DNA of 64,000 bases from Alphaproteobacteria bacterium (GCA_965232515.1 CBDDPY010000002.1:4480001-4544000), one strand, 5' to 3'; positions 1-5,351 are shown, counted from the first letter of the stretch. Numbers and translations: made by a program. Notes: generated by a model not told the origin, from the letters alone.

Positions 1-169
1 CGAAATCGAGGCGCTCCAGAATGAAAAAGAAGAGACGGTGCTCGGGTACAAAGTGCGCGTCTCGCACGCGCGAAAAGAGGGAGCGGATGCGGCAGCCCGT
101 AAGCGAGCGCTTGCTGATGTCATTGTCGGATCAATGAGGGCCGGCACCAATGATACGTCGCCCACCTAG
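1..169 (+). CDS. 3' end of an unidentified protein, partial at window edge
   Basis: Frame open from base 2 (EIEALQNEKEETVLGYKVRVSHARKEG...DTSPT) to TAG at 167-169. Confidence 0.5.
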   Translation, partial: EIEALQNEKEETVLGYKVRVSHARKEGADAAARKRALADVIVGSMRAGTNDTSPT

Positions 170-297
170 GCGCAATGGGCAAGACCAGAGTGACTTTGCG
201 AAATCCCTTGATCGTTCCACGACCAAAAGCACGTTTCGCATTTATCTGTTCGACAAACCCGAGTAACGACAATTCGTGGGTAAATTCGCTGATTTCC

Positions 298-981
298 TTA
301 TGGACGTGGTATCGCCTGTCCATCTGAAAAGTCATAAATCGAATAAATGCGTTCGCCATTCCACTGATATGCAAGGTGCCTTTCTTGACGGCAATTGCTC
401 AAGACCGACGGCCGAAAAACCGCAATGTTCGTGCTATCGAACGCAATTGATCCATCAAAGATAACGCCAAATGAACCGCGTTCCCTCAGTTCCTGTCCGA
501 TTTCTTGGGTGGCCTGCGTATCGGCGAGCAGTGCGCTTCGAGGACCTCGCAGATCATGCAGAGGACCGCTGAGATCCATGTTCAAAACCCGCATTTGAAG
601 CGTCATGGATGCTTCATCGGTGCTGCGGAGGAAGTCTTCGCGTCGGCGCACTGACCATTCAAGAGCGGCAGCAAATGTCGGAGCCGCGAAGCACACGCCA
701 AATGTGCCATCGGTAAAGTAGTCGCCGTTCGGATCAGGATGCGTGAATGGCGCCATAATGAGTGACGATCCCGGACCAGTCACAAGATCATCCGGCCGCA
801 CATAGTTCACCTGCCGCTCGGATTGCCGCACGCGCTCGTTGGTGCGCGTCTCTATGTCTGCCAGGATTTCCCAATCGTCGGGAGGCGCGATTCGCTTGAA
901 GAGATCGGCCGGTGGATATCGTGACGGGATAATGCGCCAGCATGGCCGGTAGGAGATTTCAGTAACGGGTATGACCGACAC
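298..981 (-). CDS. RES-domain toxin family protein (RES/MbcT/ParT-like), active site apparently degenerate
   Basis: WRIIPSRYPP, MAPFTH, DGTFGV, LHDLRG, AVFRP, CRQERHL motifs; directly downstream of an Xre antitoxin. Confidence 0.85.
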   Translation of the reverse strand: MSVIPVTEISYRPCWRIIPSRYPPADLFKRIAPPDDWEILADIETRTNERVRQSERQVNYVRPDDLVTGPGSSLIMAPFTHPDPNGDYFTDGTFGVCFAAPTFAAALEWSVRRREDFLRSTDEASMTLQMRVLNMDLSGPLHDLRGPRSALLADTQATQEIGQELRERGSFGVIFDGSIAFDSTNIAVFRPSVLSNCRQERHLAYQWNGERIYSIYDFSDGQAIPRP

Positions 982-983
982 CG

Positions 984-1397
984 TTATCCTCCACGCTGTG
1001 CATCCAGGTAGCTGCGAACGACAAAGAGATCGGACATGCCACCTGCGAGCATTCGATCGAGAGCCGATTGCCCGTTGAAGATTGACGCACTATTCGGCTT
1101 TCGTGCCCACGCATCTGCTACATCAGCGTCCGGAAATAGAATTTCAAGTGCTCTAAATATACCTAAGAGATAAGAGATCCGGTCAAGGGTGTCTTTGGAG
1201 AGCTGTCCACCTTCCTTTTTCCATTTAAAAAATGTCGACCGGGCGGGTTGTCCAAGAAGTGTCATTTGCTCCTCCGTATTGAGGTTCCACGCTGCGGCAA
1301 TGCCGAAAAACGCCCGAAGGGCGACATCTGATTGCGTATGCGGCTGGGTCGGTGCGGAAGCACTACGGGGCATCCCCGTGTCAGATTCTGATTTCAT
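984..1397 (-). CDS. Xre/MbcA/ParS antitoxin (HTH plus DUF2384)
   Basis: FFGIAAAWNL...LLG.PARSTFFKWK, DTLDRISYLLGI, F.GQSALDRM, VRSYLDAQRGG; GAGGGAG RBS before ATG 1397. Confidence 0.9.
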   Translation of the reverse strand: MKSESDTGMPRSASAPTQPHTQSDVALRAFFGIAAAWNLNTEEQMTLLGQPARSTFFKWKKEGGQLSKDTLDRISYLLGIFRALEILFPDADVADAWARKPNSASIFNGQSALDRMLAGGMSDLFVVRSYLDAQRGG

Positions 1398-1437
1398 GTG
1401 GTCTCCCTCGTCCATAATCGAACTTGACGTCCAGTTT

Positions 1438-1480
1438 TAGTTCGCATATAGACTATCTTGAGTAGTCCAGAATCGGACTA
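1438..1480. promoter_or_regulatory. Two palindromic operator-like sites upstream of the antitoxin
   Basis: TAGTTC-N6-AGACTA at 1438-1455 and perfect TAGTCC-N6-GGACTA at 1463-1480. Confidence 0.55.
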
Positions 1481-1536
1481 TCGGCGAGCATAAGTCTGGA
1501 TGTGCGAGCCTGCAACCTGAACAAATGGAGTCCGCT

Positions 1537-1797
1537 ATGGCAGACCGCCCGGTAAGAAAAACCCACAAGGATCGTGATGGCGACATTCTTGCGCTGTGCA
1601 ACGACGGCTCAGGCTGGTCGCCACGTCAGAAGGCCGATGCAATTCGCGACATCGAATCCCGCACGCACACCTATCACGTGCCGTGGAAAGATGGGCGCAC
1701 TGAGATCCGGGTCGTAAACGGCCCGACGGGGAAATACCTCCGAACGGATCGCGATAATACGGAACGCAACAACCTTGATGATCTTCCTGACTGCTGA
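1537..1797 (+). CDS. DUF3892 family protein
   Basis: KDRDGDI.AL, WSPR.KADAI.DIE, GKYLRTDRD.T..NNLDDLPDC; GGAG RBS. Confidence 0.8.
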   Translation: MADRPVRKTHKDRDGDILALCNDGSGWSPRQKADAIRDIESRTHTYHVPWKDGRTEIRVVNGPTGKYLRTDRDNTERNNLDDLPDC

Positions 1798-1831
1798 TGG
1801 CAGCGTTGATCGCCACATTGGAGAACAGACC

Positions 1832-2080
1832 ATGAGCAAAGATCGAGACCGGACCGTGTACCGCCGTTCAGATGGCGCGTGGGCCAACAAGCGCAACGAT
1901 GCAAGCCGAGCGTCAAGCGTCCATAACACCCAGCGCGAGGCCATCGATGCAGCGCACGGCATGCTGGGAAACCAAGGCGGCGGCGAGCTCACAACCAAGG
2001 GGCTCGACGGTCGGATACGAAGCAAAGACACCATAGCGCCTGGCAACGATCCGAATCCGCCGACGGATACGGAGCACTAG
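1832..2080 (+). CDS. DUF2188 family protein
   Basis: W.NKR..ASRASSVH.TQREAI, GGGEL...G.DGRIRSKDT...GNDPNPP.D; GGAG RBS. Confidence 0.85.
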   Translation: MSKDRDRTVYRRSDGAWANKRNDASRASSVHNTQREAIDAAHGMLGNQGGGELTTKGLDGRIRSKDTIAPGNDPNPPTDTEH

Positions 2081-2121
2081 ACGACGTGATTGGCCGATAC
2101 TAGACGACGTGATTGGCCGAT
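2076..2121. repeat. Perfect 23-bp tandem duplication
   Basis: ACTAGACGACGTGATTGGCCGAT at 2076-2098 and 2099-2121. Confidence 0.95.
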
Positions 2122-2153
2122 AACGGTTTGGAATCAATTCTATACGGTGTCGC

Positions 2154-2606
2154 ATGCCAAATCGCACAGTCCATGATCGAGTCGGAGCTGTCGTCGGCGG
2201 GTTCGCTGCCTACCATTTCGCGTCGGAACAGGAGTCACACCACCGCATGGCCGAGATAGCCGGTGGTGTGCTCGGCGGGTTCGCAGGAAGCCGCCTACCG
2301 GATATCATTGATCCTTCGACACACCCCGGACACCGCAGCCTCGGACACGGTGTGTTGCCGGTCGGGGGCGCCGTTTCGATCGGTGTGCACTACCTCGATT
2401 GGCTCCAGCAGGAACTTCGGACAATTGCGGATGATCATGCGGACGCGGGTCAACGTGCCTCGTCCGAAGGTGTGGCCGCGCTCTACACTATCATCTCACT
2501 CCTGTGCCGATTGCTGGCTGGCGCCGCTGCTGGTGCGATCGCGGGCTATGCGTCGCATCTTCTCCTTGACGCGACTACACACCGCGGACTCCCGCTCATC
2601 AGGTGA
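2154..2606 (+). CDS. Metal-dependent membrane hydrolase (YdjM/DUF457-like)
   Basis: N-terminal H, GSRLPDIID, HRSLGH, GYASHLLLDA motifs with hydrophobic segments. Confidence 0.75.
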   Translation: MPNRTVHDRVGAVVGGFAAYHFASEQESHHRMAEIAGGVLGGFAGSRLPDIIDPSTHPGHRSLGHGVLPVGGAVSIGVHYLDWLQQELRTIADDHADAGQRASSEGVAALYTIISLLCRLLAGAAAGAIAGYASHLLLDATTHRGLPLIR

Positions 2607-3082
2607 TCCACACGCACGACGGCTACGAGCTATCCCCTGAGCCACATCATCTCGCGCAACGCCCAGTACTGATGCGAGCAGGCGTGCCCATCTGCCTTTC
2701 GGCGTAGTGGTGCCGCGTTCCCAGTTTCTGAGCGTTGCCTCGTCAATGCCAAGCTCTGTGCCCAGACGTTTTCTGGAGAGACCACGCAACCGGCGGCATT
2801 TGAGCAATCGTCCTCCGATGGATTGCGGCTCAGAAAACGGGTAGTACCCGATGAACGAAATCAGCCGCGGCATGAAGCGTGCGGCTGGCGCTGTCTTGTT
2901 CTTCTCCCAGTTGCCGATGGTCCATTCGTCGACATGCAAGCGGTCTGCAACATCCTTCTGGTATAGCCCTAAATCAAGCCGCCGCTTCTTAAGGTGGTCG
3001 CCGATGGTGGTGAGTTTAGTCGGGTATGGGGTAGGTTTTCCGCAGATAAGCGTGATTCTGCAAAATGGTAGGAAAGCAATGC
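2496..3082 (-). CDS. Tandem XRE-family HTH protein; 5' end open at the att junction
   Basis: IGDHLKKRRLDLGLYQKDVADRLHVDEWTIGNWE and IGGRLLKCRRLRGLSRKRLGTELGIDEATLRNWE; no in-frame ATG/GTG/TTG between junction and first HTH. Confidence 0.75.
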
Positions 3083-3570
3083 CTCTCTGCCGCTGCGGGC
3101 ATCTCGACGATCCGGCGCTGGCCTGCAACCGGGCGCCGCGCTGCGCCCGGGAATACCAGTCGAAGATCTCCGGCCCGCTGTTCGACCGCATCGACCTGCA
3201 TGTCGACGTGCCGGCCGTCAGCGCCGCCGATCTGACCCTGCCGCCGCCGGCCGAAGGCACGGCGGAAATCGCCGCCCGCGTCGCCACCGCCCGCCAGATC
3301 CAGGCCGACCGCTACGCGCGACTCGCCGGCGGCAGGATCCGCATCAACGCCCATCTCGACGGCGACCTCCTGGAACGTGTCGCCAGCCCCGACGACGCCG
3401 GCCGTCAACTGCTGGCGGAAGCCACCGACGCCATGCGCCTCTCGGCCCGCGGCTACCACCGCGTCCTGCGCGTCGCCCGCACGCTCGCCGACATGGAAGC
3501 CACCGACGCCGTCCGCCGCCCCCACATCGCCGAAGCGCTCAGCTACCGCCGCATTCAGTTGCCGGCTTAG
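3079..3570 (+). pseudogene. comM: C-terminal fragment of ComM/YifB Mg-chelatase-like ATPase, interrupted by the element
   Basis: CRCGHLDD...YQSKISGPLFDRIDL, LSARGYHRVLRVARTLAD, HIAEALSYR; homology starts at the AMNPCxCG motif, here reading AMPLCRCG. Confidence 0.9.
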
Positions 3571-5351
3571 GCGGCGAGCGCCGTGGCGACCTGGTCGAGG
3601 CCGGCGGGCGTGTCGCTGAGCAGCAGGTTGGCGGCCGCCACTTCGAAGGGGCCGTCGTCGAGGCTGAGGGGGTCGCGGGGGCGGAGGCGGTGGTCGATGG
3701 CGAGGCGGGCGAGCAGGAGGCGGCGGGCGTCGCCGGTCTGCTCGGCCATCAATGCGCCTTCGTTCGCCAGCAGCACGGCCGACATGGCGTGGTAGAGGGC
3801 GTCGGACGCCTGGCGGGCGAAGGGCTCGTTTTCGGCGTTTGAGGCGACCTCGCGGGCGTAGCGGACGGCGCGGTCGACGAGCGCCGCGAGTTCGCCGCGG
3901 AACTGGCCGGGGACGCTGTCGGCCTTGTCGAGGGTGTCGTGCAGGGTTTCGCCCAGCGCCTCGTGGGCCATTTCCTTGGGGATGGCGCGCCCGGTGATGT
4001 CGAGGGCGTTGATCGACGAGGTGCCTTCCCAGAGCACGCCGAGATGGGCGTCGCGCACCAGCCGCGCGTTGACCCAGTCCTCGATATAGCCGTTGCCGCC
4101 GCGCGTCTCCATGGCCGCCGTCGCGACCTTGACGTTGTCGCGGGCGGTGCGGAATTTCAGGAGCGGCGTGACGATGCGGAGCGTGCGTTGGGCCAGTTCG
4201 TCGCCGGCGTCGGCGCGGGCCATCACGGCGGCGGCGAAGAGCGCGACGGACAAGGCCTGCTCGGTCGGCAGCATGATCTTCATGAGCTGCCGCCGCATCA
4301 GCGGGTGGTCCACAATGGTCTTGCCGAAGGCGACACGGTTGCGCGCCACCGTCATGGCTTCGTTCAGGCACCGCCGCATCATCGCCGCGGCGCGGACGCC
4401 GTGCGAGATCCGGCTGAGGTTCACCTGGTCCATCATCTGCTTCAGGCCGCGGCTTTCCTCGCCCATCAAATAGGCTTCCGCGCCCTCGAAGCGGACTTCG
4501 CCCGAGGCCATGGAGCGCGAGCCCAGCTTGTCCTTCAGGCGGACGATGCGATAGGCGTTGCGGCTGCCGTCCTCGAGCCGGCGCGGCACCAGGAACAGCG
4601 ACAGGCCGCGGCTGCCGGCGCCCGCGCCGACCGGGCGGGCCAGCATCAGGATCAGGTCGCCGTCGGTGGTCGAGCAGAACCACTTGTCGCCATGGATGCG
4701 CCAGGTCTGGCCGTCGAACCGGGCTTCGACCTCGCAGTTGCCGACATCGGAACCGCCGGCCTGCTCGGTCATGAACTGGGCGCCGGTCCAGATGTCGGGC
4801 CGCTTCTCGGCCAGCATGCGCGGCAGATAACGCTCACGGATCTCGGGTTGGGCGTAGCGGTTGACCAGGATCGCCGTCGTGTCGGTAGCGCTGATCGGGC
4901 ACATCAGGCCGAACTCGGACTGGGCGAAGAGATACTGGATGGCGTATTTCACCACCGGCCCCAGCGGTTTGGACCAGCCCAGCACGCCGCCCAACTGGCT
5001 GATCCGGTTCAGGCCGTAGTCCTCGTAGGCGACGCGCTCCATCTTGCGATAGGACGGGTGATACTCGATCCAGTCCTCGTCGCGGCCGAAACGGTCGCGG
5101 TAATGGAGCTGCGGCTTGTGCCGGTCAGCTTGGCGTGAGAGGTCGTCCAGCACGCCGCCGGCGCGCGCGCCGAGCTCGCGCAGGCGCGGCGCCATATGGG
5201 CGTTGAGATCGGCTGGCAGGTACTGTCCCAGGATCGCCTGCAGGCCCGGATCGATATCGTAGAAATTCTGGCCGTGGCAGTCCGGCGCGATCCAGTCGGC
5301 GCCCTGCTTGTCGCTGGCCGGTTCGGGCTTGGCTGTGGTCATGACGTTCAT
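3567..5351 (-). CDS. Acyl-CoA dehydrogenase, AidB-like
   Basis: GAQFMTEQAGGSDV, GDKWFCS, RLKDKLGSRSMASGE, GGNGYIE, WEGTS. Confidence 0.9.
   Translation of the reverse strand: MNVMTTAKPEPASDKQGADWIAPDCHGQNFYDIDPGLQAILGQYLPADLNAHMAPRLRELGARAGGVLDDLSRQADRHKPQLHYRDRFGRDEDWIEYHPSYRKMERVAYEDYGLNRISQLGGVLGWSKPLGPVVKYAIQYLFAQSEFGLMCPISATDTTAILVNRYAQPEIRERYLPRMLAEKRPDIWTGAQFMTEQAGGSDVGNCEVEARFDGQTWRIHGDKWFCSTTDGDLILMLARPVGAGAGSRGLSLFLVPRRLEDGSRNAYRIVRLKDKLGSRSMASGEVRFEGAEAYLMGEESRGLKQMMDQVNLSRISHGVRAAAMMRRCLNEAMTVARNRVAFGKTIVDHPLMRRQLMKIMLPTEQALSVALFAAAVMARADAGDELAQRTLRIVTPLLKFRTARDNVKVATAAMETRGGNGYIEDWVNARLVRDAHLGVLWEGTSSINALDITGRAIPKEMAHEALGETLHDTLDKADSVPGQFRGELAALVDRAVRYAREVASNAENEPFARQASDALYHAMSAVLLANEGALMAEQTGDARRLLLARLAIDHRLRPRDPLSLDDGPFEVAAANLLLSDTPAGLDQVATALAA

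Follow-up and report, generated by a model that had tools for sequence, protein, structure and literature searches.

We here describe a mobile element that has split comM in an Alphaproteobacteria bacterium and that probably carries its own attachment site, attP, inside one long recombinase gene, with the full-length protein made from the excised circle only and two recombinase isoforms reporting the state of the element. The window, a 64,000-nucleotide stretch (GCA_965232515.1 CBDDPY010000002.1:4480001-4544000; G000:C2:4480001-4544000 in our numbering), holds the right-hand end of the element; positions are counted from its first letter, and C2 coordinates are used for the DNA upstream of it. 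One end of the element carries a gene for a large serine recombinase (LSR) and the other a frame for two XRE-type helix-turn-helix (HTH) domains. The anatomy, the in-frame join of the two parts in a rebuilt attP and naturally unbroken versions in related elements are all apparent in the sequences compared, and they lead us to infer that full-length LSR-HTH arises from the circle alone and that the integrated copy yields a tail-less LSR. The features on which this reading depends are the following, with the basis of each assignment in brackets.

1-3087, no strand: right-hand 3.1 kb of the element (GC profile, split comM, junctions, LSR domains)
G000:C2:4439952-4480000, upstream of the window: remainder of the element, including attL and the 532-aa LSR
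C2:4439925-4441523 (L008:1925-3523), minus strand: LSR, 532 aa, adjoining attL
3062-3087, no strand: element-side half of attR, the P arm (inverted repeat of the P' arm at attL)
3088-3089, no strand: crossover dinucleotide TG (junction comparison)
3090-3113, no strand: B' arm of attR, comM side (length assumed by analogy with the P arm)
3088-3570, plus strand: 3' half of comM, 161 codons (open reading frame (ORF) map, Pfam, rebuilt attB)
3090-3287, minus strand: antisense-comM open stretch, back to GTG 3287 (ORF map)
2496-3089, minus strand: 3' part of the split ORF, 197 codons plus stop (ORF map, Pfam, start scan)
3036-3059, minus strand: codons 11-18 of that frame (RITLICGK), predicted beta-strand (complex prediction; strand 535-540 of the LSR- and HTH-bearing protein P0163)
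2850-2993, minus strand: first XRE-type HTH, residues 33-80 (Pfam)
2649-2801, minus strand: second XRE-type HTH, residues 97-147 (Pfam)

comM is split by a low-GC mobile element of 43,138 bp, measured between the two crossover points. Upstream of the window, a ChlI domain (C2:4438969-4439331) lies just upstream of a Mg_chelatase match (PF01078; C2:4439476-4439952, profile positions 1-159), and the 3' part of the gene gives a second PF01078 match at C2:4483076-4483231, which is window 3076-3231 (profile positions 155-206); with the two halves rejoined in one frame, both domains fall in a single ORF, as in ComM/YifB. A first-pass annotation, made from the sequence of the window, had foreseen a 5' comM half with attL somewhere upstream, and both were found 43 kb away. 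The jump in GC content that it had placed at the junction is also real, with values rising from 0.57-0.60 to 0.72-0.75 across window 3000-3300; the DNA between the comM halves has a GC content of 0.43-0.64 (mostly 0.57-0.61), the flanks 0.64-0.75, and the low-GC tract extends over approximately C2 4441000-4483075. Its claim that ComM homology starts abruptly at 3076 with the residues AMPL stands as regards the abrupt start and the AMPL, but the boundary itself lies 12 bases later, at the TG of 3088-3089, which falls in the Cys codon of AMNPCRCG; bases 3076-3087 belong to the att arm of the element, are comM-like and read AMPL. At attL, comM ends in ...GCGATGAACCCG TG and at attR it starts again at TG CCGCTGCGGG..., and the two junctions have the TG alone in common (C2 4439950-1; window 3088-9).

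The LSR contains a Resolvase domain (PF00239, E 1.2e-31, residues 27-172; sequence including ...IWIRVSTEDQ...), a Recombinase domain (DNA-binding domain 1, DBD1; PF07508, E 2.2e-21, residues 193-295) and a weak zinc ribbon match (PF13408, 20.1 bits, under the cut-off of 25.3), and it is colinear with P0163, in the model of which long helices occupy 361-484. Every Pfam domain ends before residue 524, the stop codon lies past the crossover, and residues 525-532 (HGFIAASS) come from antisense comM. On the minus strand the element-side ends read GATGGTGGAAAGGCAACGCCACCT (attL side) and GAGAGGCATTGCTTTCCTACCATT (attR side) and form imperfect inverted repeats, which around the 2-bp core make a dyad matching at 16 of 24 positions, a value as high as that being reached by 0 of 500 shuffles. 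Imperfect dyad att sites, a 2-bp crossover and hybrid attL and attR sites are all present as expected of a serine integrase. The anatomy is that of a large serine recombinase, and from the hybrid sites and the adjoining ORF we judge this LSR to have made the insertion. A promoter-like site (TTGACC, 18 nt, TAGAAT; 10/12) lies upstream of its gene.

At the other end, the first-pass annotation had described an intact minus-strand tandem XRE-HTH frame that reaches the junction, and this was confirmed: the frame has 197 codons, begins QRGIAFLPFCRITLICGKPTPYPTKLTTIGDHLKKRR and contains two HTH_3 stretches (PF01381, E 1.7e-19), as in the XRE family. Among the 29 codons that separate the junction from the conserved GDH codons, this copy has none of the in-frame starts ATG, GTG and TTG, and the first start listed for the frame is GTG 3287, within antisense comM. 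A promoter scan of window 2300-3800 found none, with only 0.2 expected.

To rebuild attB and attP, the flanks were joined by coordinates with a script. The rebuilt attB is a single unbroken comM frame, ...LLAAMNPCRCGHLDD..., reading AMNPCRCG, as the first-pass annotation had proposed. In the rebuilt attP the LSR frame continues into the HTH frame with no stop and no frameshift, giving an ORF of 721 codons (524 of the LSR plus 197); a fusion of the HTH frame to the recombinase was among the outcomes foreseen, and all the earlier checks that are possible in silico gave the predicted outcome. For one element the chance of an in-frame, stop-free join is estimated at approximately 1/3 × 0.13 (over 50 codons), that is a few per cent, and independent support is therefore needed.

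Such support comes from metagenomes. Relatives of the HTH occur at 80 metagenome loci, and a phmmer search of these with three LSR queries detected an LSR-like ORF at two, L073 and L106; in both the LSR part and the HTH form one stop-free ORF. Their LSR parts are close kin of this LSR, at phmmer E values of 2.7e-57 (its residues 322-498) and 1.4e-31 (394-499), respectively, and, counting the present element, the frame is open across attP in all three cases in which an LSR lies beyond it. The linker of L073 has the sequence LCYLPTNSPETMATSQRNFIPALPFCHVSIKG, and in both contigs the best dyad sits in the linker, centred on CA and with GCAACGC/GCGTTGC arms, as in the rebuilt attP; in L106 it matches at 15 of 24 positions, which 14 of 500 shuffles reach. 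The two contigs look like attP forms of sister elements in which the fusion frame has been kept, and a chance origin of the in-frame LSR-HTH relation seems unlikely. Downstream in L073 lies a TraG/TrwB-like coupling protein, which is also present in this element.

The same domains are also found permanently joined. The viral contig L030 holds a single ORF of 682 aa that encodes a Resolvase, a Recombinase and a zinc ribbon domain together with two HTH_3 domains, and a search with the C-terminal 183 residues of its product gave 265 proteins at E<=0.001; among the 120 matches listed, 91 are longer than 600 aa and share the junction region. This family of approximately 680 aa has the order Resolvase, Recombinase, zinc ribbon, HTH twice, its entries are named only 'recombinase family protein' or 'site-specific DNA recombinase', and its sources include Bryobacteraceae, Candidatus Solibacter sp. 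and metagenome-assembled genomes of Acidobacteria, on contigs of up to 1.56 Mb. Residues 2-506 of P0163 align with this LSR (25% identity) and residues 541-668 with this HTH (41% identity), in the same order of LSR then HTH. In L030 the linker dyad matches at 13 of 24 positions, which 335 of 500 shuffles reach; it is not above chance, and the family is therefore best regarded as a constitutive fusion.

The HTH belongs to a large family: 6,121 representatives match at E<=0.001, of which 2,219 do so at E<=1e-10. Of 79 metagenome loci, 77 carry an 18-base motif, GCGTTGCCTTYTTGCCAT, placed 72-81 nt (mostly 78 nt) ahead of the GDH codon and with at most three mismatches in 62 of the 77; the P arm of this copy differs from it at four positions. 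CA stands 7 nt upstream of the motif in 75/77 loci, and the sequences upstream of the crossover are mutually unrelated among loci. The motif reads A-L-P-F-C-H in 73 loci and R-V-A-F-L-P-F in this element and its nearer kin, and in 75 of the 77 loci no stop interrupts the frame between arm and HTH, despite these two reading frames. A conserved N-terminal protein motif 'ALPFC / VAFLPF' was considered and rejected: one DNA motif is read in two frames, and the seeming N-terminal peptide is therefore best explained as the att arm, conserved as DNA.

The first-pass annotation had asked whether HTH relatives always abut a comM fragment at the same spacing, and in 48 of 86 loci examined, this copy included, the arm abuts the antisense comM codons C-x-C-G. 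The remainder comprise one locus (L029) with the comM 5' half in sense, 30 with something else or near-misses, three too short upstream and four without the motif. The HTH is present in 7 of 401 genomes of the class sample and, within the order, in 1 of 33 (this one), and it abuts a comM fragment starting at profile position 155 in all three genomes tested for comM. The LSR lineage was absent from the 400 other phylum genomes searched, and no kin LSR was found in five HTH-bearing genomes of the class at E<=1e-20. A search for the HTH in plasmids and phages found nothing, a scan of genome contigs with a single HTH protein gave one weak locus, and a scan of viral contigs with an alignment of the LSR C-terminus found none.

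Some loci of the family call for separate comment. L029, with its LSR and HTH divergent, was weighed as a counter-example and rejected: a comM 5' fragment stands in sense directly before its att arm, and it is therefore an integrated copy in the opposite orientation, the neighbouring LSR belonging to something else. On this viral contig, at L029:3775-4000, a comM fragment of only approximately 200 nt separates a phage-like region, which has an LSR of its own, from a second element that starts with its att arm and HTH, which suggests two comM insertions about 65 codons apart. The LSRs of G066 (L020, L022) were tried as kin and set aside as unrelated; one of them adjoins a tRNA gene. G165 has an intact comM on C37 and, separately, a comM 3' fragment joined to a decayed HTH copy at the start of C10. 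In many metagenome contigs the HTH lies within approximately 150 nt of a contig end (L040, L054, L064-L067, L076-L078, L082, L089, L091, L093, L095, L103, L104 and L110), as would be expected if assemblies break at att junctions through the coexistence of integrated, empty and circular forms. Very long proteins with many XRE-type HTHs are also related to this HTH (P0017, P0019, P0025, P0052, P0068 and P0150); the longest has 4,162 aa and 16 matched stretches, and four of them, including P0025, P0052 and P0068, were among the ten longest scanned by Pfam and contain HTH families only.

Structure prediction links the two parts of the split gene. When LSR residues 16-524 and HTH-frame residues 1-150 were modelled as a complex, the score was 0.66, whereas the best of three controls scored 0.00; 58 of 80 solved complexes attain this mark, as do 2 of 110 mismatched pairs. 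At least 42% of contacts agree between runs, and the partner has a predicted local distance difference test score (pLDDT) of at least 76. The predicted interface is formed by HTH-frame residues 3-19 and 21 with LSR residues 483-496 and helices 341-378 and 437-459, and the HTH domains themselves lie outside its confident part. Residues 11-18 of the HTH frame (RITLICGK) are predicted to pair in antiparallel fashion with LSR 486-493 (GEISITFC), as a strand that packs on the helices 341-378 and 437-459 bordering the coiled coil. We know of no similar solved complex. In an AlphaFold2 model of P0163 (mean pLDDT 78.7, falling to 61-64 around the third strand; predicted TM-score 0.42), strands 501-511, 514-524 and 535-540 are followed by the HTH helices. 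In these models the att arms would encode a loop in a small beta-sheet, and integration would remove its third strand together with the HTHs.

We propose the following switch. In the excised circle, the LSR's own promoter would drive a minus-strand gene of 721 codons encoding the LSR catalytic domain, the recombinase domain, a zinc ribbon with coiled coil and a C-terminal beta-hairpin, and after these the att-arm loop, the third beta-strand and two XRE-type HTHs. Integration at the TG of the Cys codon in AMNPCRCG of comM would cut this gene within the loop, leaving at attL an LSR of 524 own residues and 8 from antisense comM, and at attR, 43 kb away, a 197-codon strand-plus-HTH piece that has no start codon in this copy. 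Excision would rebuild both comM and the full LSR-HTH gene in one event.

The likeliest role of the tail, by analogy, is control of recombination direction, of LSR expression or of both, because it is predicted to dock where recombination directionality factors (RDFs) act on other LSRs. Those RDFs bind the second DNA-binding domain and the base of the coiled coil (PMC11722253), synthetic C-terminal integrase-RDF fusions switch LSR direction (PMC11722253; PMC5737554), and F532 of SprA, near its extreme C-terminus, matters for direction (PMC11722253). The HTHs could add autoregulation or accessory DNA binding. More tentatively, the tail may be a direction or licensing module, with the full-length circle enzyme integrating and the tail-less one behaving differently on attL × attR. 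In the tail-less enzyme the base of the coiled coil would be uncovered, hence it might be excision-prone or locked on attL × attR, and the state of the DNA would then set the direction of the recombinase, either without a separate RDF or in addition to one.

Several observations weigh against a gene that is completed only in the circle, and some of them would suit an ordinary stand-alone regulator that lies beside attP and whose translation, whether integrated or excised, begins within the att arm or close to it (at TTG in relatives, at ATT 3083-3081 or ATC here), with its in-frame relation to the LSR incidental. The first-pass claim that the HTH frame has no canonical start holds for this copy but not for most relatives: the att arm has an in-frame TTG in 70 and an ATG in 4 of the 77 related metagenome loci, and some canonical start lies between junction and GDH in 76, so that a stand-alone HTH protein is possible there. 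By our count the annotated start falls exactly at the arm TTG in approximately 25 of the 150 best HTH representatives, that arm Leu marks the start of many database proteins of about 140-160 aa, and in L037 an ATG stands 21 codons ahead of the crossover, although the gene would then still span the att site. Against this, the TTG belongs to a GCGTTGCC core that is mirrored in the P' arms, and DNA binding alone could for that reason account for its conservation; by eye, the relatives' sequences inspected have no Shine-Dalgarno-like run at the usual distance. This copy, moreover, has no such start across its 29 codons, the frame is open across attP in all three cases with a distal LSR, and docking on the LSR is predicted for its first 21 residues. 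We consider a stand-alone regulator unlikely.

Other points also count against the proposed split gene. A P'-like arm lies upstream of the P arm in five contigs, two of which have no upstream LSR; among the five, L037 has the ATG mentioned above, L069 combines a comM fragment with an in-frame stop, and L082 is on a contig too short to judge. The L073 linker dyad (14/24, reached by 56 of 500 shuffles) is alone not above chance, and the constitutive family has no linker dyad above chance, so fusion as such appears to need no att site. No recombinase domain was seen in the 150 best HTH representatives, of which Pfam covered only the 10 longest, and a search for longer HTH-family proteins gave no recombinase-bearing one. 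A second integrated copy with both ends could not be rebuilt from the relatives' draft genomes, in which no kin LSR was found. In runs X1 and X3 the contigs read across attR, none has a loose end at 3088, and they contain the integrated form only, the excised circle and the empty site not being seen in them. This last result would also fit a fixed, decaying island that no longer excises and whose HTH frame is an unexpressed, beheaded relic, as would the clear decay of the genome relatives L013, L015, L016 and L017, which have internal stops, and the four mismatches between the arm of this copy and the family motif. We nevertheless find decay improbable, given that the 532-aa LSR and the 197-codon HTH frame are intact and keep the family's invariant residues, that the symmetry of both att arms is kept and that comM is restored exactly on rebuilding. 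Still less probable is a chimera of 263 aa made in the integrated state from GTG 3287, on a transcript running on from the 594-aa gene at 3567-5351, which is convergent. No stop closes the frame as far back as 3287, and no terminator-like site was found on the minus strand between 3570 and 3089, but open frames are common in DNA of 72-75% GC, and in 22 of 75 metagenome loci in-frame stops occur 3-10 codons from the junction with no start between, as they do beside the junction in L014 and L017. The antisense-comM open frame at 3090-3287 is thus judged to be due to chance.

The right-hand end of the element also carries the following genes, all assigned by Pfam.

298-981, minus strand: RES toxin
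984-1415, minus strand: Xre-type antitoxin (Xre/MbcA/ParS-type), paired with the RES toxin
1537-1797, plus strand: DUF3892
1832-2080, plus strand: DUF2188
2154-2606, plus strand: YdjM-like

Two head-to-tail units of approximately 23 bases (tagacgacgtgattggccgata) occupy window 2078-2125, directly after the DUF2188 stop. Upstream of the window, a second LSR (C2:4469365-4471182, L009:11365-13182, minus strand; 606 aa, Resolvase 2.4e-31) lies beside a ParB_N protein and may mark a nested or older element, and near the attL end there is a probably truncated 229-aa ORF of the tyrosine-integrase family (C2:4444129-4444815, L008:6129-6815). The cargo at C2:4452149-4462141 includes a tyrosinase, a multicopper oxidase and two large EAD1 (effector-associated) nucleoside triphosphatases, with trypsin-like peptidases further on; the load looks like a mixture of pigment/oxidase and defence-like functions. 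In the comM 3' half, short Logan contigs of run X1 have a depth of approximately 620-650 at window 3161-3209 against about 108 around it, which points either to a genomic repeat or to a stretch common to other organisms in the sample.

The comparison brings out a large family of comM-targeting elements whose annotation goes no further than small 'XRE regulators'. If the tail does act as a direction or licensing module, such a device would be widespread among these elements in uncultured bacteria. The choice of direction by serine integrases is a central question in phage biology and genome engineering, and a C-terminal module attached and detached by recombination itself would be a new answer to it and a ready-made self-reporting switch.

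Among the closest known arrangements is that of mycobacteriophage BPs and its relatives, in which attP lies within an HTH regulator gene and the free and integrated genomes encode different proteins (PMC3694055). The BPs immunity system thus shares an attP within a regulator with this element. In BPs, the same source describes a tyrosine integrase, and integration removes a C-terminal degradation tag and thereby activates the repressor (PMC3694055), whereas in the present element a serine recombinase is used and the HTH is severed from all that precedes it, the recombinase itself and the start codon included. Unlike the temperate phage, the element has no phage structural families among the 27 of its ORFs scanned. 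A recombination site within the recombinase's own gene is also shared with the suicidal integrases of the SSV type from archaeal viruses and plasmids, which are split on integration (PMC8371274); these are tyrosine recombinases, of which the N- and C-terminal parts are both thought to be inactive after the split, and the review gives recombinases that split their own gene as found only in archaea (PMC8371274). In contrast to these Phage_integr_3-type archaeal tyrosine enzymes, the enzyme here is of the Resolvase type in a genome with a bacterial comM, and the split spares the catalytic and DNA-binding domains of the LSR in one piece. If true, our reading would extend own-gene splitting to bacteria and to the serine family, against the archaea-only statement of that review (PMC8371274).

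In Tn4451 (TnpX), ICEclc (Pcirc) and ICEKp1 (P3'end), circularisation joins the ends and alters recombinase expression (PMC13023037). Such joint-dependent systems assemble a promoter or place one upstream, whereas here it is the coding sequence that would be assembled and the protein itself that would be altered. Synthetic integrase-RDF fusions are a further parallel in that they, too, carry a C-terminal addition, but they are engineered, and an RDF-like action of the strand-plus-HTH tail is hypothetical and drawn by analogy. The constitutive LSR-HTH fusions share the domain order, the HTH family and the third beta-strand before the HTHs, but they have a shorter linker, a dyad not above chance and an LSR only 25% identical to this one, and they are one unbroken ORF, which for the present element is the case only in the rebuilt attP and not in the integrated copy. 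The literature titles and abstract openings listed in searches, which cover the field in part, mention neither an LSR gene split by its own attP nor a comM-targeting LSR with an HTH tail. Hence, att-in-gene switches as such are known and, if it functions as a switch as we infer, what is new in this element is the bacterial serine-recombinase version.

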